Positions 8,348-60,283 of a DNA stretch of 64,000 nucleotides are shown here, one piece after another. This stretch comes from Mageeibacillus sp. UBA1212 (GTDB taxonomy: Bacteria > Bacillota > Clostridia > UBA1212), in assembly GCA_002309655.1 (NCBI GenBank), contig DBXM01000016.1, positions 72,771-136,770 on the forward strand. The letters run 5' to 3'. Below the pieces are notes generated by a model. It did no database searches, was not told the origin of the DNA, and was given only the letters and a program-made list of their open reading frames with translations. How positions within the stretch are numbered: the stretch's first letter is position 1; each line of letters begins with the position of its first letter. A program made the position numbers and the translations under genes.

Positions 8348-8824
8348 TCAGCTGTCCGCAAGATTCTTAAACGTAAACTCCGGCTTCCCGCCCGCAAACA
8401 CAATGACCAGATAGTCGCCGCGCGTAATAGTTCCCGGATTCAAAGCCGTAACGCCGAAATAAGTACCGCGCTCCTGGCAGTGGGTATGGCCGAAAAGCGC
8501 GTAGCCGCAGCCCTGCGCGTAAGCTTCTATGCAGATGTCCCTTATCCCGTTCCTGACGCCGTGGCGGTGGCCGTGAGCCAGAAAAAACTTCGCGTTTCCC
8601 GCCGCGGCAATCTGTTCGGAGACGTATTCACCGGACCAGCCGTAGTCGCAATTTCCCAGCACAGCCCTTGTCTCGCATGCGCCGTCGAATATGTAATCGC
8701 GCGCATGAATGAAGTCCCCGATGCCGTCGCCCAGGAACCACACAGCGTCAGGTTTTTCCTTTAAATAGGCTTTTTCGAGGAACAACTCAGAGCCGTGAAT
8801 GTCGGAGACAACAAGAATCTTCAT
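8348..8824 (-). CDS. YfcE/MJ0936-family metallophosphoesterase (phosphodiesterase)
   Basis: The motifs MKILVVSDIHG, GDGIGD, GNCD, AHGHRH and GHTH are characteristic of the MJ0936/Vps29-type calcineurin-like family. Confidence 0.8.
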   Translation of the reverse strand: MKILVVSDIHGSELFLEKAYLKEKPDAVWFLGDGIGDFIHARDYIFDGACETRAVLGNCDYGWSGEYVSEQIAAAGNAKFFLAHGHRHGVRNGIRDICIEAYAQGCGYALFGHTHCQERGTYFGVTALNPGTITRGDYLVIVFAGGKPEFTFKNLADS

Positions 8825-45001: not shown

Positions 45002-46816
45002 TTAAGCAGCCGCTCTCTCCTTTTTGACCTTTCTGACGATAAGGATACCAGAAGTCACCGCAATCGCGGCAAGACTGATGATTCCCAGAACGATTTCCGG
45101 TACGCTGAGGGCTTTGACTCCGGTTGCCGGCTGTTCCTCAACGGACGTCTTTCTTGCCGTGTACCAGACCGTCAGGTGCTTGTCCCCGTCAAGAACGTCG
45201 CCCTTGGGTTCGTCGCCTGTCGTTTTCTCCAGCCTATCGTAGCCATCAATTTCAAGAAGAGTCTTTCCGGTGCAATCGTATGAGGAATTGTGCTCGGCCG
45301 TCTGGGTCGAATCCTCCGAGAGCATCTTCTCCGTCTCGAGCTCCCTATAAGAGACAGTGATCACGTTATCGTACGCGTAGTGAAAATTGATATTCTTGTC
45401 GCAGTCCAGAAGCCCAACCACCGCATCGCCGTCTGCCGCGCTGTAGTAATACGAGGTGTTTTCAGTTTCGATCTCGTCGATTTTCGTCTCGGTGCGGTCG
45501 TAGTCCGACAGATTCTCGCCAGTCGTAATCACTTCGGTATGGATGATCTCGCCTGTATACTTGTCGCGGTAGTTGACCACGATTTTGTGCGTGTAGCCGT
45601 ACGTGATGTCGATCAGAACGTCGCCGTCGATTGCATCCGCCGTAAGATTTCCGCCGTAAACCGCTCCGAACACGTACTCGCCGTCTTCACCTTCAACAGA
45701 GTATTTGTACTCGACACCGCCGAATTCGACCGCTTTGTTGTCGTCGAGCTGGCTGCGGCAGTCGTACGGTGCGAGATGCTCGACGTCAAGGCTGTAAGAG
45801 TCTTTGATCTCAAGAATTTCGCTTTCCGCGTATTTGTACTTGTCCAGGAACCTGACGGTAACCTTGTCATAGTAACCGTAGTAGGCGTTCACGATAACGT
45901 CGCCGTCCATAACTCCGGACAGTTTTTCCTCATTCTCGCACCGTCCGAGGCTAAGCTTGAAGGCGTGCCCGTCCTTGTCGATCTGCTGAACGAGCTTATC
46001 TCTCCTGTCGTATTCCGAGTTGTGTTCGATCTTGAGATCCGTGTAGGCCTCTTTAATGACCGCGCCGTCGTATTTCGAGAGATAGTTGAGCGTCAGAGTC
46101 TCGTAGTAGCCGTAATAAATGTTGACCGTAACGTTTTCAGAAATGTTGCCTACCAGACCCGCCTCGTTGTCGCAGCTTCCGAGCGACAGAAGGTAAGTAT
46201 GTCCGCCTGCGAAAATGCTCTCGAGCAGCTTGTCGCTGTAGTCGTACGCTTCACCGTTTTCGATCTCGTCCACAATGAAACTGTCTTTGATCTTCTCGCC
46301 TGTGTACTTGTCAAGATAGTTGACCGTGATTCCGAACCCGTAACCGTAATAAAGATCGATCACTTTGTCTGCGTCAAGCGTTCCGGAAACCGGGTCGCTG
46401 TTGCCCGCCTGAATTCCCGCCAGTGTGGCAGCCTCGTCGTAGTGATACTTTGAAAGATCAGGACTTACACTGCCGAGATCCTCGAAAATGAAATTGTACG
46501 TTTGGCCGGCGTTTCCTATCGCGGAAATATCGTACGCGGAATTGTGTTCCAGCACGCCGCTGTCCTTGCCGCCGAACAAAAGGAATCCTTTCACGGGATC
46601 GTCCTGCTTAATTATCGACATAAGCCTGGCTCTCGGACCCGCGTTCTCACTGCCACCGCCCGAACTGCCTGCCGAACCGGTATCGCTGATCTTAATTTCG
46701 TCAGCGCCGGTTCTGCTGTATAAAGGTCCGCCGCCCGACAGCATATTCGCGCCGCAGCCTGCAAATACCGCCAGCGCCAAAAACGCCAAAACAACCGAAA
46801 TAATAAACTTTTTCAT
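45002..46816 (-). CDS. Cell-surface lipoprotein with five MucBP-like repeats and a C-terminal transmembrane anchor (putative adhesin)
   Basis: The lipobox signal is MKKFIISVVLAFLALAVFAGC. Five repeats of about 80 aa have the form V(N/T)(Y/F)(L/R)DKYTGE.I....YY.GY. The C-terminal helix LSVPEIVLGIISLAAIAVTSGILIV is followed by a basic tail RKVKKERAAA. No LPXTG motif is present. Confidence 0.55.
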   Translation of the reverse strand: MKKFIISVVLAFLALAVFAGCGANMLSGGGPLYSRTGADEIKISDTGSAGSSGGGSENAGPRARLMSIIKQDDPVKGFLLFGGKDSGVLEHNSAYDISAIGNAGQTYNFIFEDLGSVSPDLSKYHYDEAATLAGIQAGNSDPVSGTLDADKVIDLYYGYGFGITVNYLDKYTGEKIKDSFIVDEIENGEAYDYSDKLLESIFAGGHTYLLSLGSCDNEAGLVGNISENVTVNIYYGYYETLTLNYLSKYDGAVIKEAYTDLKIEHNSEYDRRDKLVQQIDKDGHAFKLSLGRCENEEKLSGVMDGDVIVNAYYGYYDKVTVRFLDKYKYAESEILEIKDSYSLDVEHLAPYDCRSQLDDNKAVEFGGVEYKYSVEGEDGEYVFGAVYGGNLTADAIDGDVLIDITYGYTHKIVVNYRDKYTGEIIHTEVITTGENLSDYDRTETKIDEIETENTSYYYSAADGDAVVGLLDCDKNINFHYAYDNVITVSYRELETEKMLSEDSTQTAEHNSSYDCTGKTLLEIDGYDRLEKTTGDEPKGDVLDGDKHLTVWYTARKTSVEEQPATGVKALSVPEIVLGIISLAAIAVTSGILIVRKVKKERAAA

Positions 46817-46836: not shown

Positions 46837-49530
46837 TTATGAAGAATGTTCCGCGCTGATAACTTCTCTGTGAAGTTCAGCGCCCGTGTATTTGTCCCTG
46901 TAGACAACCGTAATTGTGTGAAAATATCCGTATGTGACGTCCGTCTCGATATCGGAGTCCCCCGCGATTCCCGAAAGCGGAGCGCCGTAGACGCCGCCCA
47001 CCTGCAAATCTTCTTTAGTATAGTAGTAGCCGATGCCCTCCGACGTGATCTTCGAGAATTCCACCAGAATGTCCGAACAGTCGTACCCCTCTCCCGGAGT
47101 GAGAATGAACGTCAGCGAATCTTTAATCCGCTTTTTCTCACCTTGAGCGTACAGATATTTATCGTAAAAGTTGACCGTAAGCCTCGGGTATCTGATATTC
47201 CTGAACAATACCGTCCTGCTGCTTCCCGGCGCAAGGGTCACAGTTGCCGACAAAGAAACAGTCGTTTCACCGTCCAGAGTGACCTCTGTTTTATCAAACC
47301 TTTGGCAGTTTCCCGTTATCTCGCGCACCGTCCATTCGCCAGCGGGAAGCCCTTCGACCGCAATCGTGTTCAGCGTCTCGCCGCCATTGGAACTCACGTT
47401 CAGTCTGACCTCGATTTTGCCTTCAACTAGGGAATAATTATTCCTGTTAAGAGTTACGTCGCCCTCCGCGGTACCCGCAACCTGCAAGCCGTCCTGAACG
47501 ATTGTTCCCTCGCAGGATATGAAGATCCTTACCGGTGAACCGTTCACGCCGCCGGCGATCTCGAAATACGTATCCGAAAAGTCGTTTCCCGTCGCGATTT
47601 TGCCGACTTCCAGAACGGTATTCACGGTTTTTAAGTTGTCGAATCTCGCAGTCGCGGGCGCACCAGGATTTCGCGTAACCGCCACAGTAAGACTGTCGGA
47701 AGGCGCCGAATAATCCTCTCCCGCGTATGTCGCATTGAACCTTGTAAGATCACCGGCGAGAATTTCCCTGACCTGCCAGTTTCCCTCGGGAAGACCCGAT
47801 ATTTTAATCCGCCTCAGAGCTCTTTGATCGCTGCCCGTTATATTGTCCGTTGCGACAGTCACGAAATCCGGCCTTACCGTATTGAACCCGATCTCGATTC
47901 TTTTAAGACCTGCGGGACCCAGTGCGTAATAGACCGCGTCTTCAACGAATCCGCCGCTTGCGTCAACGGTGAATTTTATGTTTCCGTTAAGGCTGTCAGC
48001 GCCGCTCACCTCAAAGAACGTGACCGAATAGTCTCCGCCCTCGGCATACTTCAATATGTCGAGTTCACCCGTAAAAACGGTGTTTACGACCGTTATTTCT
48101 CTGCCCGTATCCGCGACGGTAAAAGCGTACCGCCCTGCGGCATCAGGTTGAAGAACGGTATTACCCACTTTTACAGTGCCTGTTCTGTATCCGAGCCCTG
48201 AATTCTCCTCCGTCAGATAATAAGTGCCCGGTCTCAGCCTCAGATTCGCCTTTCCGTCTGCGCCGGTTACCAAAGTGTACGTTTCGCCCCCGGAAGCAGA
48301 CTCGATTACGAAAACAAAGCCTGCCTTCGACGCGTTTCCCGAAGAAGCACCGTCAACCGTTACGGATTTAGACACGCTGACAAGCGGCGCCTCCGACACC
48401 TGGTACCGGAGACCCACGCCTCCCGCTTTGAGCTGGTCTGTAACGTATCTCGCTGCGGTCGCTCCGTACGACTCAATTCGCGGCATGCTGTCGAGGTTCT
48501 CGATACCCATCCACCCTTTGGAAGTATATACGGACGAAGGCAGATTCTGGAAAAGCGCCGCGATTCCCATCGAGAGAAACTCGCCGCTGACTTTCGCCTT
48601 GAGGTCAGCCTCTTCGCTCCTGAACAAAACATTGACGTTGTCAGCGTTGCTCGTGAAATTATACCTGCCCGTGATCATCGCTGCCGATATTTCAGTCGCC
48701 GTAAGCGCCATCGCGTAGCCGCTCCTCAGCTGAACCGTCACCACAGGCTCGTACTCGAACACCCAAGGCACGCACGAAGTGTGGAGCATGTCGTCTCCCC
48801 TAATCGCGCTCACCATGCCGAGGCCCCACTCCGCGCCTGTTTTCGTCGCGCCGTTCAGCGTAAACGTCAGGTTCGAAAGTATGCCCTCGACCGTTCCGTC
48901 ACATGCCTCCGCCGCCAGCTCAATCAGTTTGTTCGACGTCTCCGCACCTGTAAAGAACGCATACGCGCCTGAAGCGTTCCCGCCGAAATTCGGGATGTCA
49001 GGCACCTCGTTATCTCCCGTGAAGCCGTAGTTCTGGCCGTTAAAGCAGATCGACGAAAGCTCCGCGTAAGTTCCTTGTTTAAAGAATTCGGACGCCTGCA
49101 TGCTGCCGTTCCTGTACTCTTCGAAATGGTCTCTGTACCACTGTTTGTCTCTTACGGTCAGGAAGAAGTTCGACGCCTGATAATTCGCGGCCGCAAGGCC
49201 CGCGCCGTGGTTTGCGTCCTTATATAGATAGAACGAGTTTCCGAACTTGTAGTAGTCTCTCGACAGCTTCTGCGTCCCGAGCTGCGCGTCAAAGTCCTGC
49301 TCCGCAGACGAGTGCGACAGCGAATCCGATTTTCCCACGTACACCGACACCTTCCACATACAGTATACGTTCATGTAGCTTCCGTTCCCCGTAGCGCCTC
49401 CGATTACCGCCCCCTCGTCGCTTATAAGGTCGTTTTCGTCTGTAATGGCTCTGGTTCTCCCCGCGGGAATCGAGAAGAACGCCGCGACAACAAGAATCGC
49501 AACCGTGGCAATTATGAATAAATTCCTGTT
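46837..49530 (-). CDS. Large secreted surface protein (about 898 aa) with Cna-B/prealbumin-like Ig-fold domains and C-terminal MucBP-like repeats; putative adhesin
   Basis: A TTG start at 49530 lies 6 nt after the AGGGGTGAG ribosome-binding site. It gives the signal peptide (M)NRNLFIIATVAILVVAAFFSIPAGRTRA. The track's upstream ATG at 49629 lacks a ribosome-binding site. Repeated beta-sandwich segments are present (GTYYLTEENSGLGYRTGTVKV). The last 150 aa repeat the same YDKYxxA / YRDKYTGAE motif seen in the downstream gene. Confidence 0.5.
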   Translation of the reverse strand, partial: NRNLFIIATVAILVVAAFFSIPAGRTRAITDENDLISDEGAVIGGATGNGSYMNVYCMWKVSVYVGKSDSLSHSSAEQDFDAQLGTQKLSRDYYKFGNSFYLYKDANHGAGLAAANYQASNFFLTVRDKQWYRDHFEEYRNGSMQASEFFKQGTYAELSSICFNGQNYGFTGDNEVPDIPNFGGNASGAYAFFTGAETSNKLIELAAEACDGTVEGILSNLTFTLNGATKTGAEWGLGMVSAIRGDDMLHTSCVPWVFEYEPVVTVQLRSGYAMALTATEISAAMITGRYNFTSNADNVNVLFRSEEADLKAKVSGEFLSMGIAALFQNLPSSVYTSKGWMGIENLDSMPRIESYGATAARYVTDQLKAGGVGLRYQVSEAPLVSVSKSVTVDGASSGNASKAGFVFVIESASGGETYTLVTGADGKANLRLRPGTYYLTEENSGLGYRTGTVKVGNTVLQPDAAGRYAFTVADTGREITVVNTVFTGELDILKYAEGGDYSVTFFEVSGADSLNGNIKFTVDASGGFVEDAVYYALGPAGLKRIEIGFNTVRPDFVTVATDNITGSDQRALRRIKISGLPEGNWQVREILAGDLTRFNATYAGEDYSAPSDSLTVAVTRNPGAPATARFDNLKTVNTVLEVGKIATGNDFSDTYFEIAGGVNGSPVRIFISCEGTIVQDGLQVAGTAEGDVTLNRNNYSLVEGKIEVRLNVSSNGGETLNTIAVEGLPAGEWTVREITGNCQRFDKTEVTLDGETTVSLSATVTLAPGSSRTVLFRNIRYPRLTVNFYDKYLYAQGEKKRIKDSLTFILTPGEGYDCSDILVEFSKITSEGIGYYYTKEDLQVGGVYGAPLSGIAGDSDIETDVTYGYFHTITVVYRDKYTGAELHREVISAEHSS

Positions 49531-49641
49531 CAAATCAATCTCACCCCTGTAAGAAAATAAAAAAGAGCAGCGAAAATAACTTCTCTGCTCCTCTGCCCGC
49601 CGCGATGCGTATAAATCATGCGGCATCAATTAATTACCGTG

Positions 49642-50292
49642 TCAGGCCGTCTTCCTGAACCCGTCTTTTGAAAGCGACGGAAGATAGCTCTCCAGCTTTT
49701 CCGCTCTTGCCTCCTCGACGGCATTGAGAGCCTCTTCAAGGTCCTCCGGACAGCAGATTCTCGACGGTCTTGCGTTAAAATCAAGAATCTTCTCCGCGCC
49801 TTTTACGTAGCACGTTCCGAACAGGCACACGTACCCTCCGACGTCGCTGTCAATGACCGTCACGCAGTCCTCGACCCTGGCGTACTGTCTGATTACGGAA
49901 TTGCCGCCGACCGACGCCTCGTCTCTCAGCTGCGCAAAATCCCTGATCTCGCACATTCCGAAAGCCCTCGAATTGTCGCGCATGGTCACCGTAGGAACGC
50001 TTATCCGCTCGATTCCGCGCACCCACGCGTTCTCCGAGACATAGGCCCGGCCGAAGACCGCAGCCCCTTTTCCGACCCAGCAGTTACCCTCCTGCGACAG
50101 ATTCCACTCTCCTTCAATCAATCCGCCGGTCTCGCCGCGTTTTACGATCAGCCCGGGATACTTGTCCCTGCCTATCGAATTGCCCTTAACCGGCCTCAAA
50201 ACAAAACTCTTCACCGCAACTATTCTGTAAAGCGTTCTGCCGAACAGTTGAACGGGTTCGTTTTCAATTATTCTGTATTTCATTTCCGACAT
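49642..50292 (-). CDS. Hexapeptide-repeat (left-handed beta-helix) protein of unknown function, paralog A
   Basis: It is 216 aa. The N-terminal 60 aa read MSEMKYRIIENEPVQLFGRTLYRIVAVKSF, followed by [IV]-x-G-x-A-x hexad repeats. It shares its architecture and N-terminal motif with the adjacent gene. Confidence 0.45.
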   Translation of the reverse strand: MSEMKYRIIENEPVQLFGRTLYRIVAVKSFVLRPVKGNSIGRDKYPGLIVKRGETGGLIEGEWNLSQEGNCWVGKGAAVFGRAYVSENAWVRGIERISVPTVTMRDNSRAFGMCEIRDFAQLRDEASVGGNSVIRQYARVEDCVTVIDSDVGGYVCLFGTCYVKGAEKILDFNARPSRICCPEDLEEALNAVEEARAEKLESYLPSLSKDGFRKTA

Positions 50293-50340
50293 TACCGTTA
50301 ATTCCTCCGTACCGGACGCGCATGTATACGCGCCCGCATT

Positions 50341-51063
50341 TTATACTGCGACGGGATTCGCGCTTCCGCACAGAACCCCTTTGTTTACCCGCTTGCAGCC
50401 GTCAAGAACGTACTCTCCCATTACGACCGCGTCGCCCGAAACGATGCAAAGATCTTTTACGACCGCGTTGTTCTTGACGAAAGCGCATCCTTTGACTGCC
50501 GCCGCACCGCCGACTCTCGCGTGATCCGAGACTCTCGCAAAACCGGTCACGACCGAGTTGCCTCCTATCTCCGCATACCCCTTGATTACCGCTCTGTTCA
50601 TTATCTTCGCGTTGCCGCTGATTCTGGCCCGCTGAAGTATTTTCGCGCTATGCTTAATCTGGGAGCATCCGCACACCAGGCTGTTGCCTCCAATCTCGAG
50701 AATGTCGCCGGTTTCCGCGTTTTTTCTTCCGTTTACCTTCACCGGAAAATCGAGAACGTCCGCCCTCGGGTTCCGTCCGCACGTGCCTTCCACGACCGCG
50801 TTGTCGCATACCGAAGCGCTTCCATGTACCAGCGCGTAGCCGAGCACCTTTGAGTTTCCGCTCACGACCGCGTTTTCCATAACGACCGCGTTGTTGTAAA
50901 TCCAGCAGTCGCCTTCATGAGAAAGATTCGTCTCGTTCTCCACATACCCGCCGAATTCGCCCTCGCAGACGTCGGAAAAACTCCTGAGCGCTCTTATTTT
51001 ATACACCCGTTTGCCGTAAACCTCGCCTTCTCCGTTTCCGGTCAGAATCTCGTATTTTTTCAC
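50341..51063 (-). CDS. Hexapeptide-repeat (left-handed beta-helix) protein of unknown function, paralog B (GTG start)
   Basis: It is 240 aa. The N-terminus reads (M)KKYEILTGNGEGEVYGKRVYKIRALRSF. It is followed by 12 or more consecutive hexads (ISGNAK IMNRAV IKGYAE IGGNSV VTGFAR VSDHAR VGGAAA VKGCAF ...). The GTG start follows a GGGGGTGGGAG ribosome-binding site. Confidence 0.45.
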   Translation of the reverse strand: MKKYEILTGNGEGEVYGKRVYKIRALRSFSDVCEGEFGGYVENETNLSHEGDCWIYNNAVVMENAVVSGNSKVLGYALVHGSASVCDNAVVEGTCGRNPRADVLDFPVKVNGRKNAETGDILEIGGNSLVCGCSQIKHSAKILQRARISGNAKIMNRAVIKGYAEIGGNSVVTGFARVSDHARVGGAAAVKGCAFVKNNAVVKDLCIVSGDAVVMGEYVLDGCKRVNKGVLCGSANPVAV

Positions 51064-51416
51064 ACTCCCACCCCCTTTAAATTGTCTTAAAATTTATAAA
51101 TAGTAATTCTGAAATGGTATTGCCCGCCGCGGGTCCGGTCTTTTGGAATGCGCGTTTTCAAGCTTCCCGCGCACCCCAACTTCCCTCCGGAAGCCGTCCG
51201 TTAAAGGACGGAATCTGAAATAACATCGCAGATCACAGCTTTTCCGCACACGTTCCCCAAGGTGTCCCGTATTCTCACTCTCCGCCGGAAGCATGCGCAA
51301 TGCGCGCCCCCGGTTTCCTAAAGGCTCCGGCTACCTGCGATATTACTCAGAAGGCAATACCCTGATGTTCTGTTTTCAAAGTCCGCAATCCGCCGCTCAA
51401 CTATTAATAAGAGCGG

Positions 51417-52163
51417 TCAGTTTCTCCCGATGTCCGACCTGCCGCTGGCGAATACCGCCGCATCCACAGACAGCGCTCCGAGTTCGTCGACAATCAGCTC
51501 CGCGCACTCCCTGAGAGTCGCGCCTGTCGTCAGAATGTCGTCAATTAAAAGAATCTTTCTCCCCGCGACTTTTTCACGGTTGCCGTCGCCGTTAACTCTG
51601 AACTTCCCTGAAGCGTTTGAGCTTCTCTGGACAAATCCGAGCCGGCTCTGCTTCTGCCTCCCGGAGTCCGCCTCAAGGAGCCTCAGCGTCTCGATTCCGC
51701 TCAGTTTTGAAATCTCCGCCGTCATTTCGTGGCATTGGTCAAAACCTCTCTTTCTGAAACGGTCCCTGCTGACGGGAACGTACGAGATATATGAATACTC
51801 CCGGAACCACGCGCCGAACGATTCATAGAGCAGCTTGCCGAAGCGTTTTCCCATCCATACTTCCCCTTTAAACTTGTAACGCGTAAAAGCCTCTTTAAGC
51901 GCCCCCGAATAACGTCCGTAGCAGTACAGTTTCCCGAACGGATAGATATCTCCCGGGTGTTCGTTCGGCATTGTATACCGGACGACGTCTTTGGCGCACT
52001 TCGGGCATATGACCGGCCCGCGTACGGAATTCCCGTCAACCGCTGAAGTTCTTTTCGAAGTCCCTTCCGTAGCGGTGCTTCCGCCGCAGATGACGCAAAT
52101 CTCGGGAAATAACAGCTCATCAAAAAAAGTTGTAATTCCGTAGAATACTTTTCTTTTATTCAT
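51417..52163 (-). CDS. comFC: ComF-family phosphoribosyltransferase-domain protein (ComFC-like)
   Basis: An N-terminal double C-x-x-C zinc finger (CVICGG...CPKCAK) and a C-terminal PRTase motif KILLIDDILTTGATL are present. The start at ATG 52163 is favoured over the track's GTG-initiated 30-aa extension. No comFA helicase gene is adjacent. Confidence 0.7.
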   Translation of the reverse strand: MNKRKVFYGITTFFDELLFPEICVICGGSTATEGTSKRTSAVDGNSVRGPVICPKCAKDVVRYTMPNEHPGDIYPFGKLYCYGRYSGALKEAFTRYKFKGEVWMGKRFGKLLYESFGAWFREYSYISYVPVSRDRFRKRGFDQCHEMTAEISKLSGIETLRLLEADSGRQKQSRLGFVQRSSNASGKFRVNGDGNREKVAGRKILLIDDILTTGATLRECAELIVDELGALSVDAAVFASGRSDIGRN

Positions 52164-52245
52164 TGTTCTTCGCGGCGGCGCGAACCCCTCTTCCCGGACA
52201 GATTCAGGCAAAACAGAAATATCCGGCTTTGTTCCGGCGGGAATG

Positions 52246-52593
52246 TCATTCACCGGAAGCCGCCTTGAGCTCTTCGGCTTTAACGAGCGTCAGTTCGGGA
52301 ACGCTTTCCGCACCCGGGGCGGCGGATTCATCGGACTTGGGCGCCTGCGGCCGGTAGCCGTCGGTCAGTTCGGAAGCGTTGATGTGCTTCATGTACTTGG
52401 CGAGCACAAGGAACTCGGGTCTCGTAAGAGTGATTCCCTTTCTCATGCTGGTGCGCTCGGGGCTCCACTCTCTGATGTCGAGCTTCGGACCTGAGTCGTT
52501 CCACTTGACAATGTTGACCTCGCGGGTCCAACCGTTGCCTCGGTCACTGAGTACGCAAATGTGTTTTACAATTTCATATTTTACTTCTGCCAT
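52246..52593 (-). CDS. YdbC-like / PC4-like ssDNA-binding family small protein
   Basis: The ATG at 52593 has a GGAGGT ribosome-binding site. It is 115 aa. The sequence MAEVKYEIVKHICVLSDRGNGWTREVNIVKWNDSGPKLDIREWSPE matches the bacterial YdbC (PC4-fold) family pattern. The C-terminus is acidic and low-complexity. Confidence 0.45.
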   Translation of the reverse strand: MAEVKYEIVKHICVLSDRGNGWTREVNIVKWNDSGPKLDIREWSPERTSMRKGITLTRPEFLVLAKYMKHINASELTDGYRPQAPKSDESAAPGAESVPELTLVKAEELKAASGE

Positions 52594-52626
52594 CGTTGTT
52601 ACCTCCTTTTTCGTTGGCGTACACGA

Positions 52627-52654
52627 ATTATACCTGTTCACAAACGGTTTTGCA
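52627..52654 (-). promoter_or_regulatory. Sigma-A-type promoter (TTGCAA-16-TATAAT) for the ydbC-like gene
   Basis: On the minus strand the -35 TTGCAA (plus coordinates 52649-52654) and the -10 TATAAT (52627-52632) sit about 30 nt upstream of the ribosome-binding site and ATG. Confidence 0.5.
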
Positions 52655-58178: not shown

Positions 58179-60128
58179 TCAGCTGTTGCAGATGACCGTG
58201 AAGTCCGGCACCTTCAGGCTGGCGCCGCCGACAAGACCGCCGTCGATGTCCTCCATCGCGAACAGGCCCGCTGCGTTCTTGGCGTTGCAGCTGCCGCCGT
58301 ACTGGATTGTGATCACGGAGGATACGTTCGGGCCGTAGAGCTTCTTGACGGTCTCGCGGATCGACTTGCAGACTTCCTGAGCCTGGTCGTCGGTAGCGGT
58401 AAGGCCGGTTCCGATTGCCCAGATCGGCTCGTAGGCGATGATGATGCCTGCGGCCTGGTAGTCGCGGACGCCGTTCAGAGCATACTCGACCTGGTAGGCA
58501 ACGAGCTCGTTGGTGACTCCGGCAAGTCTCTGATCCTTCGACTCGCCGACGCAGACGATCGGAGTGATGCCGAACTTGAGGGCCTGCTTGACCTTCAGGT
58601 TGACGGACTCGTCTGTCTCGTTGTAGTACTGACGTCTCTCGGAGTGGCCGATGATGACGTACTCGACGCCGAGGTCCTTGAGCATTTCAGCCGAAATTTC
58701 GCCGGTGTAGGCACCCTTGTCGTGGTAGTCCATATTCTGAGCCGCGATCTTGATGTGGGTGCCCTTTGCGGCTTCGAGCGCCGCGGGAATCGCAACGTAC
58801 GGAACCGCGCAGATAACGTCGTTCTTGCAGCCCTTTGTAGCCTCGGCGAGTTCCTTAATGAAGGCCGCCGCCTGGCTCGGAGTCTTGTTCATCTTCCAGT
58901 TGCCTGCCGCAACTATCTTTCTGTCCTTGTTTTCGAGGCAGGAGATTCCGGGAAGGTCGCGTCCTTCGAGGAATTCGAGGGAAGCGCCGCCGCCCGTGGA
59001 GATGTGGGTGATGGAATCCGCGAAGCCGAGCTGTTCGACAGCAGCCGCACTGTCTCCGCCGCCTACGATTGTTGTGGCCTCAGCCGCGGCAAGCGCCTGC
59101 GCGACAGCGATAGTTCCCTTTGCGAGGATCGGGTTCTCGAAAACGCCCATAGGTCCGTTCCATACGACCGTCTTCGCGTTTCTGATCTCTTCCGCGAAGA
59201 GCTCGCGGGTTGCGGGTCCGATGTCGCAGCCCATTCTGTCGGCGGGCATTTCGGTCGACTTGCAGACGAGCGTCTCAACCGGCGCGTCGATCGGGTTCGG
59301 GAACTCGGGAATCGTGACAGCGTCTACCGGGAGAAGCAGCTTCTTGCCGAGGGCTTCGGCTTTTTCGAGCATCTCTCTGCAGAAGTCGATTTTGGTCGGG
59401 TCGACCAGCGAGGTGCCGATGGAGTAGCCCTGCGCGTTAAGGAAGGTGTAAGCCATGCCGCCGCCGATGATGAGCGTGTCGCACTTTTCGAGAAGGCTGG
59501 AGATGACCGAGAGCTTGTCGGCAACCTTCGCGCCGCCGAGAATGGCCACGAACGGGTGCTCCGGGTTGTTGACCGCGTTTCCGAGGAAGGCGATTTCCTT
59601 CTCGATAAGGAAGCCTGAAACCGCGGGCAGATAGTCGGCGATGCCGGCCGTCGTTGCGTGAGCGCGGTGGGCTGTTCCGAACGCGTCGTTAACGTAGAGC
59701 TCGGCCATGGAAGCGAGTTCCTTCGCGAATTCGGGGTTGTTTTTCTCCTCTTCCTTGTGGAATCTCGCGTTTTCGAGCATCATGATCTCACCGGGTTTGA
59801 GGGCCGCGGCTTTCGCCTTCGCGTCAGGTCCGATAACGTCGGTAGCCTGGATAACCTCTCTGCCGAGGAGCTCTCCGAGACGCTTCGAAGCGGGTGCCAT
59901 CGAGTACTTCATGTTGAACTCGCCCTTCGGTCTGCCCAGGTGGGAGACGAGAATGACGGCCGCGTTCTTCTCGAGAAGGTACTTGATCGTGGGCACGGCG
60001 CCGACGATTCTCTTGTCGTCGGAAATGTTTCCTTCGCTGTCAAACGGGACGTTGAAGTCGACTCTGACGATCACTTTTTTGCCGGCGCAGTCGACGTCGG
60101 CAATTGTCTTTTTGCAATAATAGGCCAT
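58179..60128 (-). CDS. pgk/tpiA: Bifunctional phosphoglycerate kinase / triosephosphate isomerase fusion protein
   Basis: The ATG at 60128 has an AAAGGAGAG ribosome-binding site. The N-terminal 400 aa are PGK ([21 protein letters not shown]). The C-terminal 250 aa are TIM ([26 protein letters not shown]). The reading frame is continuous, with no internal stop. Confidence 0.85.
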
Positions 60129-60283
60129 AATAAGGACTCTCCTTTGCATGTATTTTATACGTTTTTATATTAGCACACCGCTTCCGTGTTTTCAAGAATC
60201 AAACCTTCGGCGGCGGCACGTATTCAGAAATTATCACTGTGAACGTTTGCGTAAAAAGCATTTACTCAGCGTTCACTTTGCGT

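Follow-up and report, generated by a model that had tools for sequence, protein, structure and literature searches.

A conserved tandem pair of YdcK-family genes, with an upstream candidate RNA element, in an uncultured clade of Clostridia

What is the function of two small tandem beta-helix genes that lie directly upstream of two large surface-protein genes, and are the two sets of genes partners? This question is raised by a stretch of 64 000 nucleotides (nt) from Mageeibacillus sp. UBA1212, an uncultured clostridial genome of rumen or gut origin (GenBank assembly GCA_002309655.1, contig DBXM01000016.1, positions 72 771 to 136 770 of the forward strand), which we call the window and whose own numbering is used for all coordinates. 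An earlier note, made from the letters of the window, had described the two genes (here B and A) as encoding left-handed beta-helix proteins of an uncharacterized family heading an adhesin operon, and had proposed that they act on the surface proteins or serve as their chaperones or modifiers. The analysis presented here favors another reading, to which we give a probability of about one half: the two genes are a cassette of the mainly phage-carried YdcK family that has been domesticated and is inherited vertically, and they encode non-enzymatic binding or scaffold proteins.

Family and fold of the two proteins

Gene B (50341–51063, minus strand) has a GTG start preceded by the ribosome-binding site (RBS) GGGGGTGGGAG and encodes 240 amino acids (aa). 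Gene A (49642–50292, minus strand) follows after 48 nt in the window; it has an ATG start, the RBS GGAGGAA and 216 codons' worth of protein (216 aa). The two products are paralogs (28% identity, BLASTP E = 9e-14), in agreement with the earlier description of tandem paralogs of these lengths, and the N-terminal module that had been said to be common to both is indeed present, as MKKYEIL...GKRVYKIRALRSF in B and as MKYRII...GRTLYRIVAVKSF in A. Public records with the exact sequences of both proteins exist under the name 'MAG: hypothetical protein [Clostridia bacterium]', and B carries the JGI label 'carbonic anhydrase/acetyltransferase-like protein'.

The claim that hexads make up most of the remainder of both proteins holds for B and only in part for A. 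Protein B consists of an N-terminal cap (residues 1–55), seven hexads (53–94), a loop, some 18–20 consecutive in-register hexads starting at residue 121 and a C-terminal tail of the form KRVxKGVLxG..NP. The loop (about residues 97–120) is 24 residues long, is not conserved among the B orthologs and has a low predicted local distance difference test (pLDDT) score. The hexad periodicity of B is strong, with 34 aliphatic pairs at six-residue spacing versus 18.1 ± 3.1 in shuffled sequences; that of A is weak (19 such pairs versus 15.9 ± 2.9), and the longest in-register run in A has six hexads. Protein A is further distinguished by a 17-residue insertion in the cap, an irregular helix and a helix-like C-terminal segment, a remnant of the C-terminal domain of the YdcK family.

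Profile and sequence comparisons place both proteins in the YdcK family at the superfamily level (NF040481 / PF18836 / PHROG 7964-5070). The NCBIfam model YdcK_fam (NF040481) matches B with E = 6.8e-24 (84.4 bits) and A with E = 5.5e-13 (48.5 bits). Since these scores are far under the equivalog cut-off of 350 bits, which neither protein reaches, A and B are relatives and not orthologs of the enterobacterial YdcK. In HMMER comparisons, the sequences of the Salmonella YdcK crystal structures (PDB 2F9C/2PIG) are matched by B with E = 8.7e-15 and by A with E = 6.9e-6, the alignments spanning the cap region. The best profile matches are to two PHROGs, both listed with 'unknown function': phrog_7964 (B, E = 3.5e-59; A, E = 1.9e-24) and phrog_5070 (B, E = 2.4e-51; A, E = 5.4e-28). 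The Pfam model B_solenoid_ydck (PF18836) gives B 18.3 bits, which is under its gathering score of 30 bits, and has no match to A at E ≤ 1. Thus, the opinion that the family is uncharacterized was right with respect to function; the family itself has already been named and has crystal structures.

The relationship is carried by the cap. The motif K-x-Y...h-Y/F-R-I-x-A-h-x-x-F...G-x-x-G-G-x-h-E-x-E-x-N-L-S-x-x-G-x-C/A-W-h is found in B as well as in A, and an alignment of 23 sequences has the invariant columns K3, Y4, I23, G35, G38, G39, E44, N46, L47, W54 and V61. The residues conserved across the family are confined to the N-terminal cap; there are none in the helix.

Over 204 residues (24% identity), a model of protein B fits the YdcK crystal structure at 1.4 Å, while right-handed helices fit the model only as mirror images (EtpA, at a root-mean-square deviation of 12 Å). 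Protein B is, as modeled, a left-handed beta-helix, the fold that had been suggested for it. The SCOP group 'YdcK-like' belongs to the trimeric LpxA-like superfamily. We also observed that an AlphaFold model built from a shallow alignment came out mirror-handed, which is a practical caution for the classification of beta-solenoids by predicted structure.

Handedness also bears on the possibility that A and B are bactofilin-like, polymer-forming cytoskeletal proteins. Some relatives do have precomputed matches to the Pfam family Bactofilin (PF04519), and NCBI calls some of the phage and plasmid homologs 'polymer-forming cytoskeletal protein'. Bactofilins are right-handed helices, though, and B is left-handed by its fit to YdcK. 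When the two Pfam families named in the earlier note were checked, PF04519 had no match at E ≤ 1 to either A or B, and Hexapep (PF00132) stayed under its 27-bit threshold in both (25.0 bits for B and 13 bits for A). The Bactofilin matches of the relatives are explained by a similar repeat periodicity. We consider a bactofilin-like role very improbable.

Distribution of the family and conservation of the pair

The family is very large: of 1.84 billion representative proteins searched with a profile, 21 231 score E ≤ 1e-3 and 6744 score E ≤ 1e-30 (the ∼6700 strong members being clusters at 50% identity), and many of the matches are multi-module fusions. With tblastn, family members were detected in 95 of 50 697 phage records and in 27 of 72 556 plasmid records. 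The phage carriers include Streptococcus Javan prophages, Liberibacter phages SC1 and SC2, Ruminococcus phage phiRM10, Lactobacillus phage LfeInf (with five copies) and phages of Bacillus, Vibrio and Bacteroides. In phiRM10, Javan174 and SC1 the gene is located in the early rightward operon, between cro/antirepressor genes and genes for recombination and replication. Other relatives have relaxase and ParAB genes as neighbors, or are part of a phage recombination module or of a 257-kb jumbo-phage-like contig. Phages and prophages are thus the main carriers of the family, and plasmids and other mobile elements make up some of its contexts. A scan of GTDB genomes gave 565 relatives; the best 80 of them are dominated by multi-copy Bartonella loci and also include Saccharibacteria, Glomeribacter and Streptococcus.

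Tandem arrays, defined as at least two same-strand modules <1.5 kb apart, were found in 35 of the 59 loci of at least 8 kb, with up to six modules. Such arrays are the norm in the YdcK family and therefore a tandem pair is typical for it. Examples of arrays with two to six modules are seen in L097 (7162–8762), L007/L008 (9998–12900), L013 and L049, which cover the jumbo-phage-like contig, Bartonella, Glomeribacter and Saccharibacteria; in the jumbo-phage pair the first gene has a cap insertion resembling that of gene A. The number of helix turns varies widely over the family. About 55–60% of the members end in a domain of ∼90 aa (phrog_20532; GCFxG..EF..H..EY), which is absent from B and present in A as the remnant mentioned above. 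This family, PHROG 7964 included, is met in the early regions of temperate phages and as arrays in host-associated bacteria, with Bartonella, the Liberibacter phages and Saccharibacteria as examples of host-associated carriers; hence its wider interest.

Two other roles were considered and rejected. As for a component of a known defence system, PADLOC had no match for A, B or three relatives. The idea of a DNA mimic does not agree with the charge of the proteins: the B orthologs are basic (isoelectric point, pI, 8.5–9.6), A is near neutral and the family, with a median pI of ∼5.6, is not strongly acidic. Literature mentioning YdcK assigns no function to it, and searches with PF18836, 'YdcK-like' and polyvalent-protein solenoids gave nothing; the polyvalent-protein paper by Aravind does not mention YdcK.

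In the window the pair has a setting of another kind. A close relative, L001, has the identical gene order. In five more lineages (L087, L088, L089/L090, L085 and L219) B is 43–49% and A is 55–58% identical to the window copies, synonymous sites are saturated, and the order leuA, pgk-tpi, ilvB, ilvN, cimA, PC4, ComF, a gap of ∼380–400 nt, B and A has been kept. Across six lineages of this uncultured clade of Clostridia, B and A have stayed together at a single chromosomal position, separated by 1–52 nt or overlapping. No phage genes flank the pair. We conclude that the B–A pair is vertically inherited and chromosomally fixed.

The two genes are real and under strong purifying selection. In comparison with L001 (91–93% identical) B has a ratio of nonsynonymous to synonymous substitution rates (dN/dS) of 0.064, and A one of 0.028. 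The neighbors have higher values: 0.088 for the ComF-like gene, 0.114 for the PC4-like gene, and 0.087 and 0.104 for the downstream genes S604 and S930, respectively.

One could still take the pair for a decaying prophage remnant with no current function, as the family is mainly phage-carried and the pair is without the usual C-terminal domain. Such a remnant would hardly show dN/dS of 0.03–0.06, under that of flanking housekeeping genes, or persist at a shared position, with both orthologs intact, in six lineages with saturated synonymous sites, and no phage genes are left around it. The selection and synteny data largely refute decay, which we regard as barely plausible.

Two observations concern the upstream neighborhood itself. 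The PC4/YdbC-like gene (52246–52641, minus strand), of a family described as binding single-stranded DNA, overlaps the start of the ComF-like phosphoribosyltransferase gene (51417–52253, minus strand) by 8 nt, and this unit of two genes is kept in all relatives examined. Further upstream, a single open reading frame (ORF) of 656 aa (58179–60149, minus strand) fuses phosphoglycerate kinase with triosephosphate isomerase; the Pfam domains PGK and TIM occur in a single product in the relatives as well.

Downstream surface-protein genes and an upstream RNA element

Two large genes do follow the pair on the same strand, as had been described; their label as MucBP-repeat proteins finds no support in Pfam, where neither matches MucBP. 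The first, S930, encodes a large secreted or surface protein whose only Pfam match is SpaA (PF17802, 32.7 bits). The mechanically defined ORF of S930 (930 aa, TTG at 49629) probably reaches too far upstream. The probable start is instead a TTG at 49533 (gene 46837–49533, minus strand): it is preceded by the RBS AGGGGTGAG and followed by the signal-peptide-like hydrophobic segment NRNLFIIATVAILVVAAFF. Gene callers likewise used the extended start in L001–L003. The second gene, S604 (45002–46816, minus strand), encodes a surface protein rich in repeats. Its lipoprotein-type signal contains the lipobox-like LAVFAGC, and it has a C-terminal transmembrane (TM) anchor and a basic tail; searches of Pfam (to E ≤ 10) and of the PDB sequences (to E ≤ 1) gave no match to it. 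A QPATG motif is situated just ahead of the anchor.

Comparison of the lineages separates these genes from the pair. In L087, L088, L089/L090 and L219 no genes of the size of S930 or S604 come after the pair; there is an ORF of 35–100 aa and then a GH127-like gene. Conversely, L222, whose ComF is 39% identical, has an S930 homolog (L222:1382–2554) 14 nt after ComF and has no pair. Since four lineages have the pair only and L222 has the S930 homolog only, the pair and the large surface proteins occur independently. In the phage and mobile-element contexts inspected there are no adhesin genes. The co-occurrence with adhesin genes that the earlier note had suggested looking for across genomes was thus not seen.

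Gene A is also parted from S930 by a terminator-like hairpin (49551–49593, minus strand), detected with RNAfold between the stop codon of A and the RBS of S930. It has a stem of 9+4 bp followed by UUUUUUAUUUU and a folding energy of about −16 to −18 kcal/mol; hairpin and U-tract are kept in L001, and only ∼15 nt are left between the hairpin and the RBS of S930. A simple terminator scan missed it, probably through the unpaired base pair within the stem. From this arrangement we infer that B and A form an expression unit of their own, made of an upstream RNA element (described below), B and A and largely ending at the hairpin after A.

The small ORFs that take the place of the large genes in the sister lineages (L087:10660–10962, L088:10650–10886, L089:10644–10757 and L219 near 8526–8633) are homologous to the membrane anchor of S604 (45002–45110), the observed score being reached by 0–3 of 1000 composition-preserving shuffles. 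They represent an S604-like gene, either as what is left of it or in a minimal form, and they are tightly coupled to A (gap of −14 to +49 nt, no terminator). From these ORFs one can argue for the most defensible form of the idea in the earlier note, in which the pair would be a dedicated cytoplasmic partner of the downstream membrane-anchored protein and would anchor, sort or chaperone it. The docking site would be the basic tail that S604, or a small anchor protein, has on the cytoplasmic side. In favor of this, all pair-bearing lineages have after A an ORF whose product carries a homologous TM anchor and a basic tail, tightly spaced or overlapping in four of them, and no separate promoter for S930 is evident. 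The adjacency carries little weight, because the pair-bearing lineages are close relatives with synteny conserved over 20 kb. Moreover, in two lineages the downstream ORF has just 35–37 aa, the hairpin lies between A and S930 in the window, the S930-like gene of L222 does without the pair, and the wider family has no adhesin or anchor context. The small ORFs after phage homologs are not hydrophobic and do not encode membrane proteins; a family-wide module of a YdcK protein with a small membrane protein was rejected for this reason. Overall, a partnership of this kind appears improbable.

Neither A nor B has a signal peptide or a TM segment, and both are predicted from sequence to be soluble and cytoplasmic. 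With no export signals, with pair and surface genes uncoupled and with the hairpin after A, the proposal that A and B act on the surface proteins or serve as their chaperones is not borne out; S930 and S604 are neighbors and not demonstrated partners of A and B.

Other genes for surface structures were observed farther downstream in L087–L090. At ∼12.9–20.6 kb these contigs encode a protein of 413–492 aa, a DUF8195 protein of ∼1085 aa with 25% identity to S930, and a pilus locus of the Tad/Flp type (DUF6133, prepilin peptidase, RcpC and a TadA-like ATPase). This block is situated 3–10 kb past the pair, its DUF8195 gene at ∼4 kb; the window and L001 have AMP-binding and alkaline-phosphatase genes in its place.

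On the other side of the pair, the gap between the ComF-like gene and B contains a candidate structured RNA element (51113–51386, minus strand), recognized by covariation, folding energy and conservation. It begins 15–30 nt past the ComF stop codon in every lineage. Its core is ∼240 nt long in the window, and the four sister lineages have a variable insertion of ∼130 nt. The RNAalifold consensus is closed by a long-range helix (51353–51358 paired with 51119–51124, AUUGCC/GGCAAU), inside which are a long imperfect helix, a domain whose size varies and three 3′ hairpins. Blocks of 15–20 nt are invariant even though synonymous sites in the flanking genes are saturated. The element is present in all six pair-bearing lineages and absent from L222 and L221, both of which are without the pair.

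In an alignment of seven sequences, compensatory changes are seen in 33 of the 58 consensus pairs (vs 19.5 ± 2.5), and 89.2% of cells are paired, compared with 75.0 ± 1.4% in shuffled alignments (none of 500 reaches the observed value) and 37–46% in slid controls; this covariation support is good and not definitive, because the alignment that tests the structure also supplied it, and the number of independent lineages is only about five. The minimum free energy of the window copy is −109.2 kcal/mol (z = −4.46) on the gene strand versus −87.6 kcal/mol on the other strand, and conserved G-U pairs favor the gene strand too. A small coding ORF is an unlikely explanation for the conservation, as stop-free stretches change frame and strand among the lineages and the invariant blocks have no codon periodicity.

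The position of the element is reminiscent of a known RNA. A location downstream of comFC on the same strand is typical of the raiA motif RNA, or ModT (PMC10861870, PMC5737381), and 74% of raiA RNAs have a comFC-type gene directly before them in the same orientation (PMC10861870). Still, the raiA/ModT model RF03072 gave no match at E ≤ 10 on 400 nt, and neither GGUCUGUGGUUGAAAG nor AGGCGAGUGUGGGGUCAAA, the conserved terminal motifs of ModT as read from primers in PMC11706538 S4, occurs anywhere in the window when up to three mismatches are allowed. Rfam 15 as a whole leaves the element unmatched at E ≤ 10, with only a chance rli47 match of 12 bits downstream, over the RBS and start of B. In looking for more copies, a metagenome pattern scan with AGCCGNAGNCTTTAGGA gave chance matches only, and two scans of viral contigs returned no full-length copies.

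The element may be the 5′ leader of B–A or a separate small RNA. Our tentative suggestion, possible and no stronger than that, is that it represents a previously undescribed class of large structured RNA in the comFC-downstream slot of raiA/ModT and forms one module with the YdcK pair, as a cis-acting leader or as an RNA that partners with the beta-helix proteins. The element is the most novel feature of the region, being a possible new RNA class, and it offers a concrete regulatory hypothesis; if the suggestion is true, the module of RNA and pair would give the first way into the function of a very large phage-associated family.

Proposed role and comparison with known systems

We propose that A and B are rigid, non-enzymatic binding or scaffold proteins. 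The invariant residues of the cap (K3, Y4, I23, G38, G39, E44, N46, L47 and W54) would form an interaction surface, and the helix, with its variable length in the family, would serve as a spacer or an oligomerization element. B, which is basic and has a regular helix, and A, near neutral and with an irregular one, probably act as a heteromer. By analogy with the phage copies, the likeliest role would be to bind and modulate another protein, cellular or phage. The pair would then be a domesticated phage accessory function rather than a modifier of the neighboring adhesin-like proteins.

Several points count against this proposal of a non-enzymatic, domesticated cassette. In the literature mentioning YdcK we found no experiment that gives a function to any member of the family, and 'non-enzymatic' is deduced from missing sequence conservation. 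The pair does not have the C-terminal domain phrog_20532, with which 55–60% of the family end, and its role may for that reason differ from the role of the phage copies. No promoter was seen between the hairpin and the start of S930, so that read-through into S930/S604 is possible. Finally, H138 and H181 are conserved among the B orthologs, as a subfamily-specific feature, and an excursion loop together with histidines, as in B, is found in some hexapeptide acyltransferases.

The last point leads to the question of whether B acts, by itself or jointly with A, as an acyl- or acetyltransferase of the hexapeptide-repeat type, its substrate being an envelope glycan or else the neighboring surface proteins before their export. 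The profile scores are far under the family cut-offs: models for LpxA, LpxD, PaaY and NeuD give 24–31 bits against cut-offs of 160–320 (for LpxA, 29 vs 226), and the best NCBIfam match to a gamma-carbonic anhydrase has E = 0.016 and 14.9 bits, the cut-off being 250. Protein A has no histidine at all; B has four and no HxxxxH motif, and these two facts exclude the three-histidine zinc site of the gamma-carbonic anhydrases. No helix residue is conserved family-wide, and no acyltransferase catalytic set is evident, in line with the earlier remark on the catalytic histidine, although the B orthologs keep H138 and H181; homology to a characterized acetyltransferase or gamma-carbonic anhydrase with intact catalytic residues, which was to be looked for as counter-evidence, was not found, all profiles being below cut-off. 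The loop of B speaks less for an active site when one considers its lack of conservation among orthologs and its low pLDDT; also, helix length varies widely in the family, and the four pair-bearing lineages without large surface proteins would have no such substrates next to the pair. An enzymatic role for A and B is therefore unlikely, the acyltransferase included.

The same contrast appears when the pair is set beside the enzymes themselves. The hexapeptide acyltransferases and gamma-carbonic anhydrases (LpxA, LpxD, GlmU, PaaY and Cam) do not have the N-terminal cap in which the conserved residues of A and B are located. Unlike these enzymes, A and B have no three-histidine zinc site and no catalytic histidine conserved across the family (H138 and H181 being kept among the B orthologs only), and they reach no curated threshold.

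For the RNA element the nearest counterpart is raiA/ModT (RF03072). The two share position and orientation downstream of comFC and a general plan, that is, a large multi-helix RNA with a terminal closing helix and a variable internal domain. They differ in that the element has no covariance-model match and no ModT terminal motifs, and in that the gene downstream of it is not raiA but the YdcK pair.

YdcK of Salmonella and E. coli resembles B and A in the N-terminal cap motif, in the left-handed beta-helix and in having a function that is also not known. It is a single-copy protein of 326 aa, whereas B adds a 24-residue loop and a C-terminal tail of its own, and A has the cap insertion and a degenerate helix.

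The phage early proteins of PHROGs 7964/5070 (phiRM10 gp34, Javan174_0012 and SC1 gp145/gp150) have the cap-plus-helix architecture of B and A, their function is likewise not known, and there are often several copies per genome. Most phage copies end in the phrog_20532 domain, whereas B does not have it and A has only the remnant; the phage copies are mildly acidic (median pI 5.6), whereas the B orthologs are basic. Phage copies are situated between the lysogeny switch and the recombination genes, and the B–A pair among housekeeping genes. Chromosomally fixed and strongly constrained, the pair makes a cleaner genetic system than the fast-evolving phage copies.

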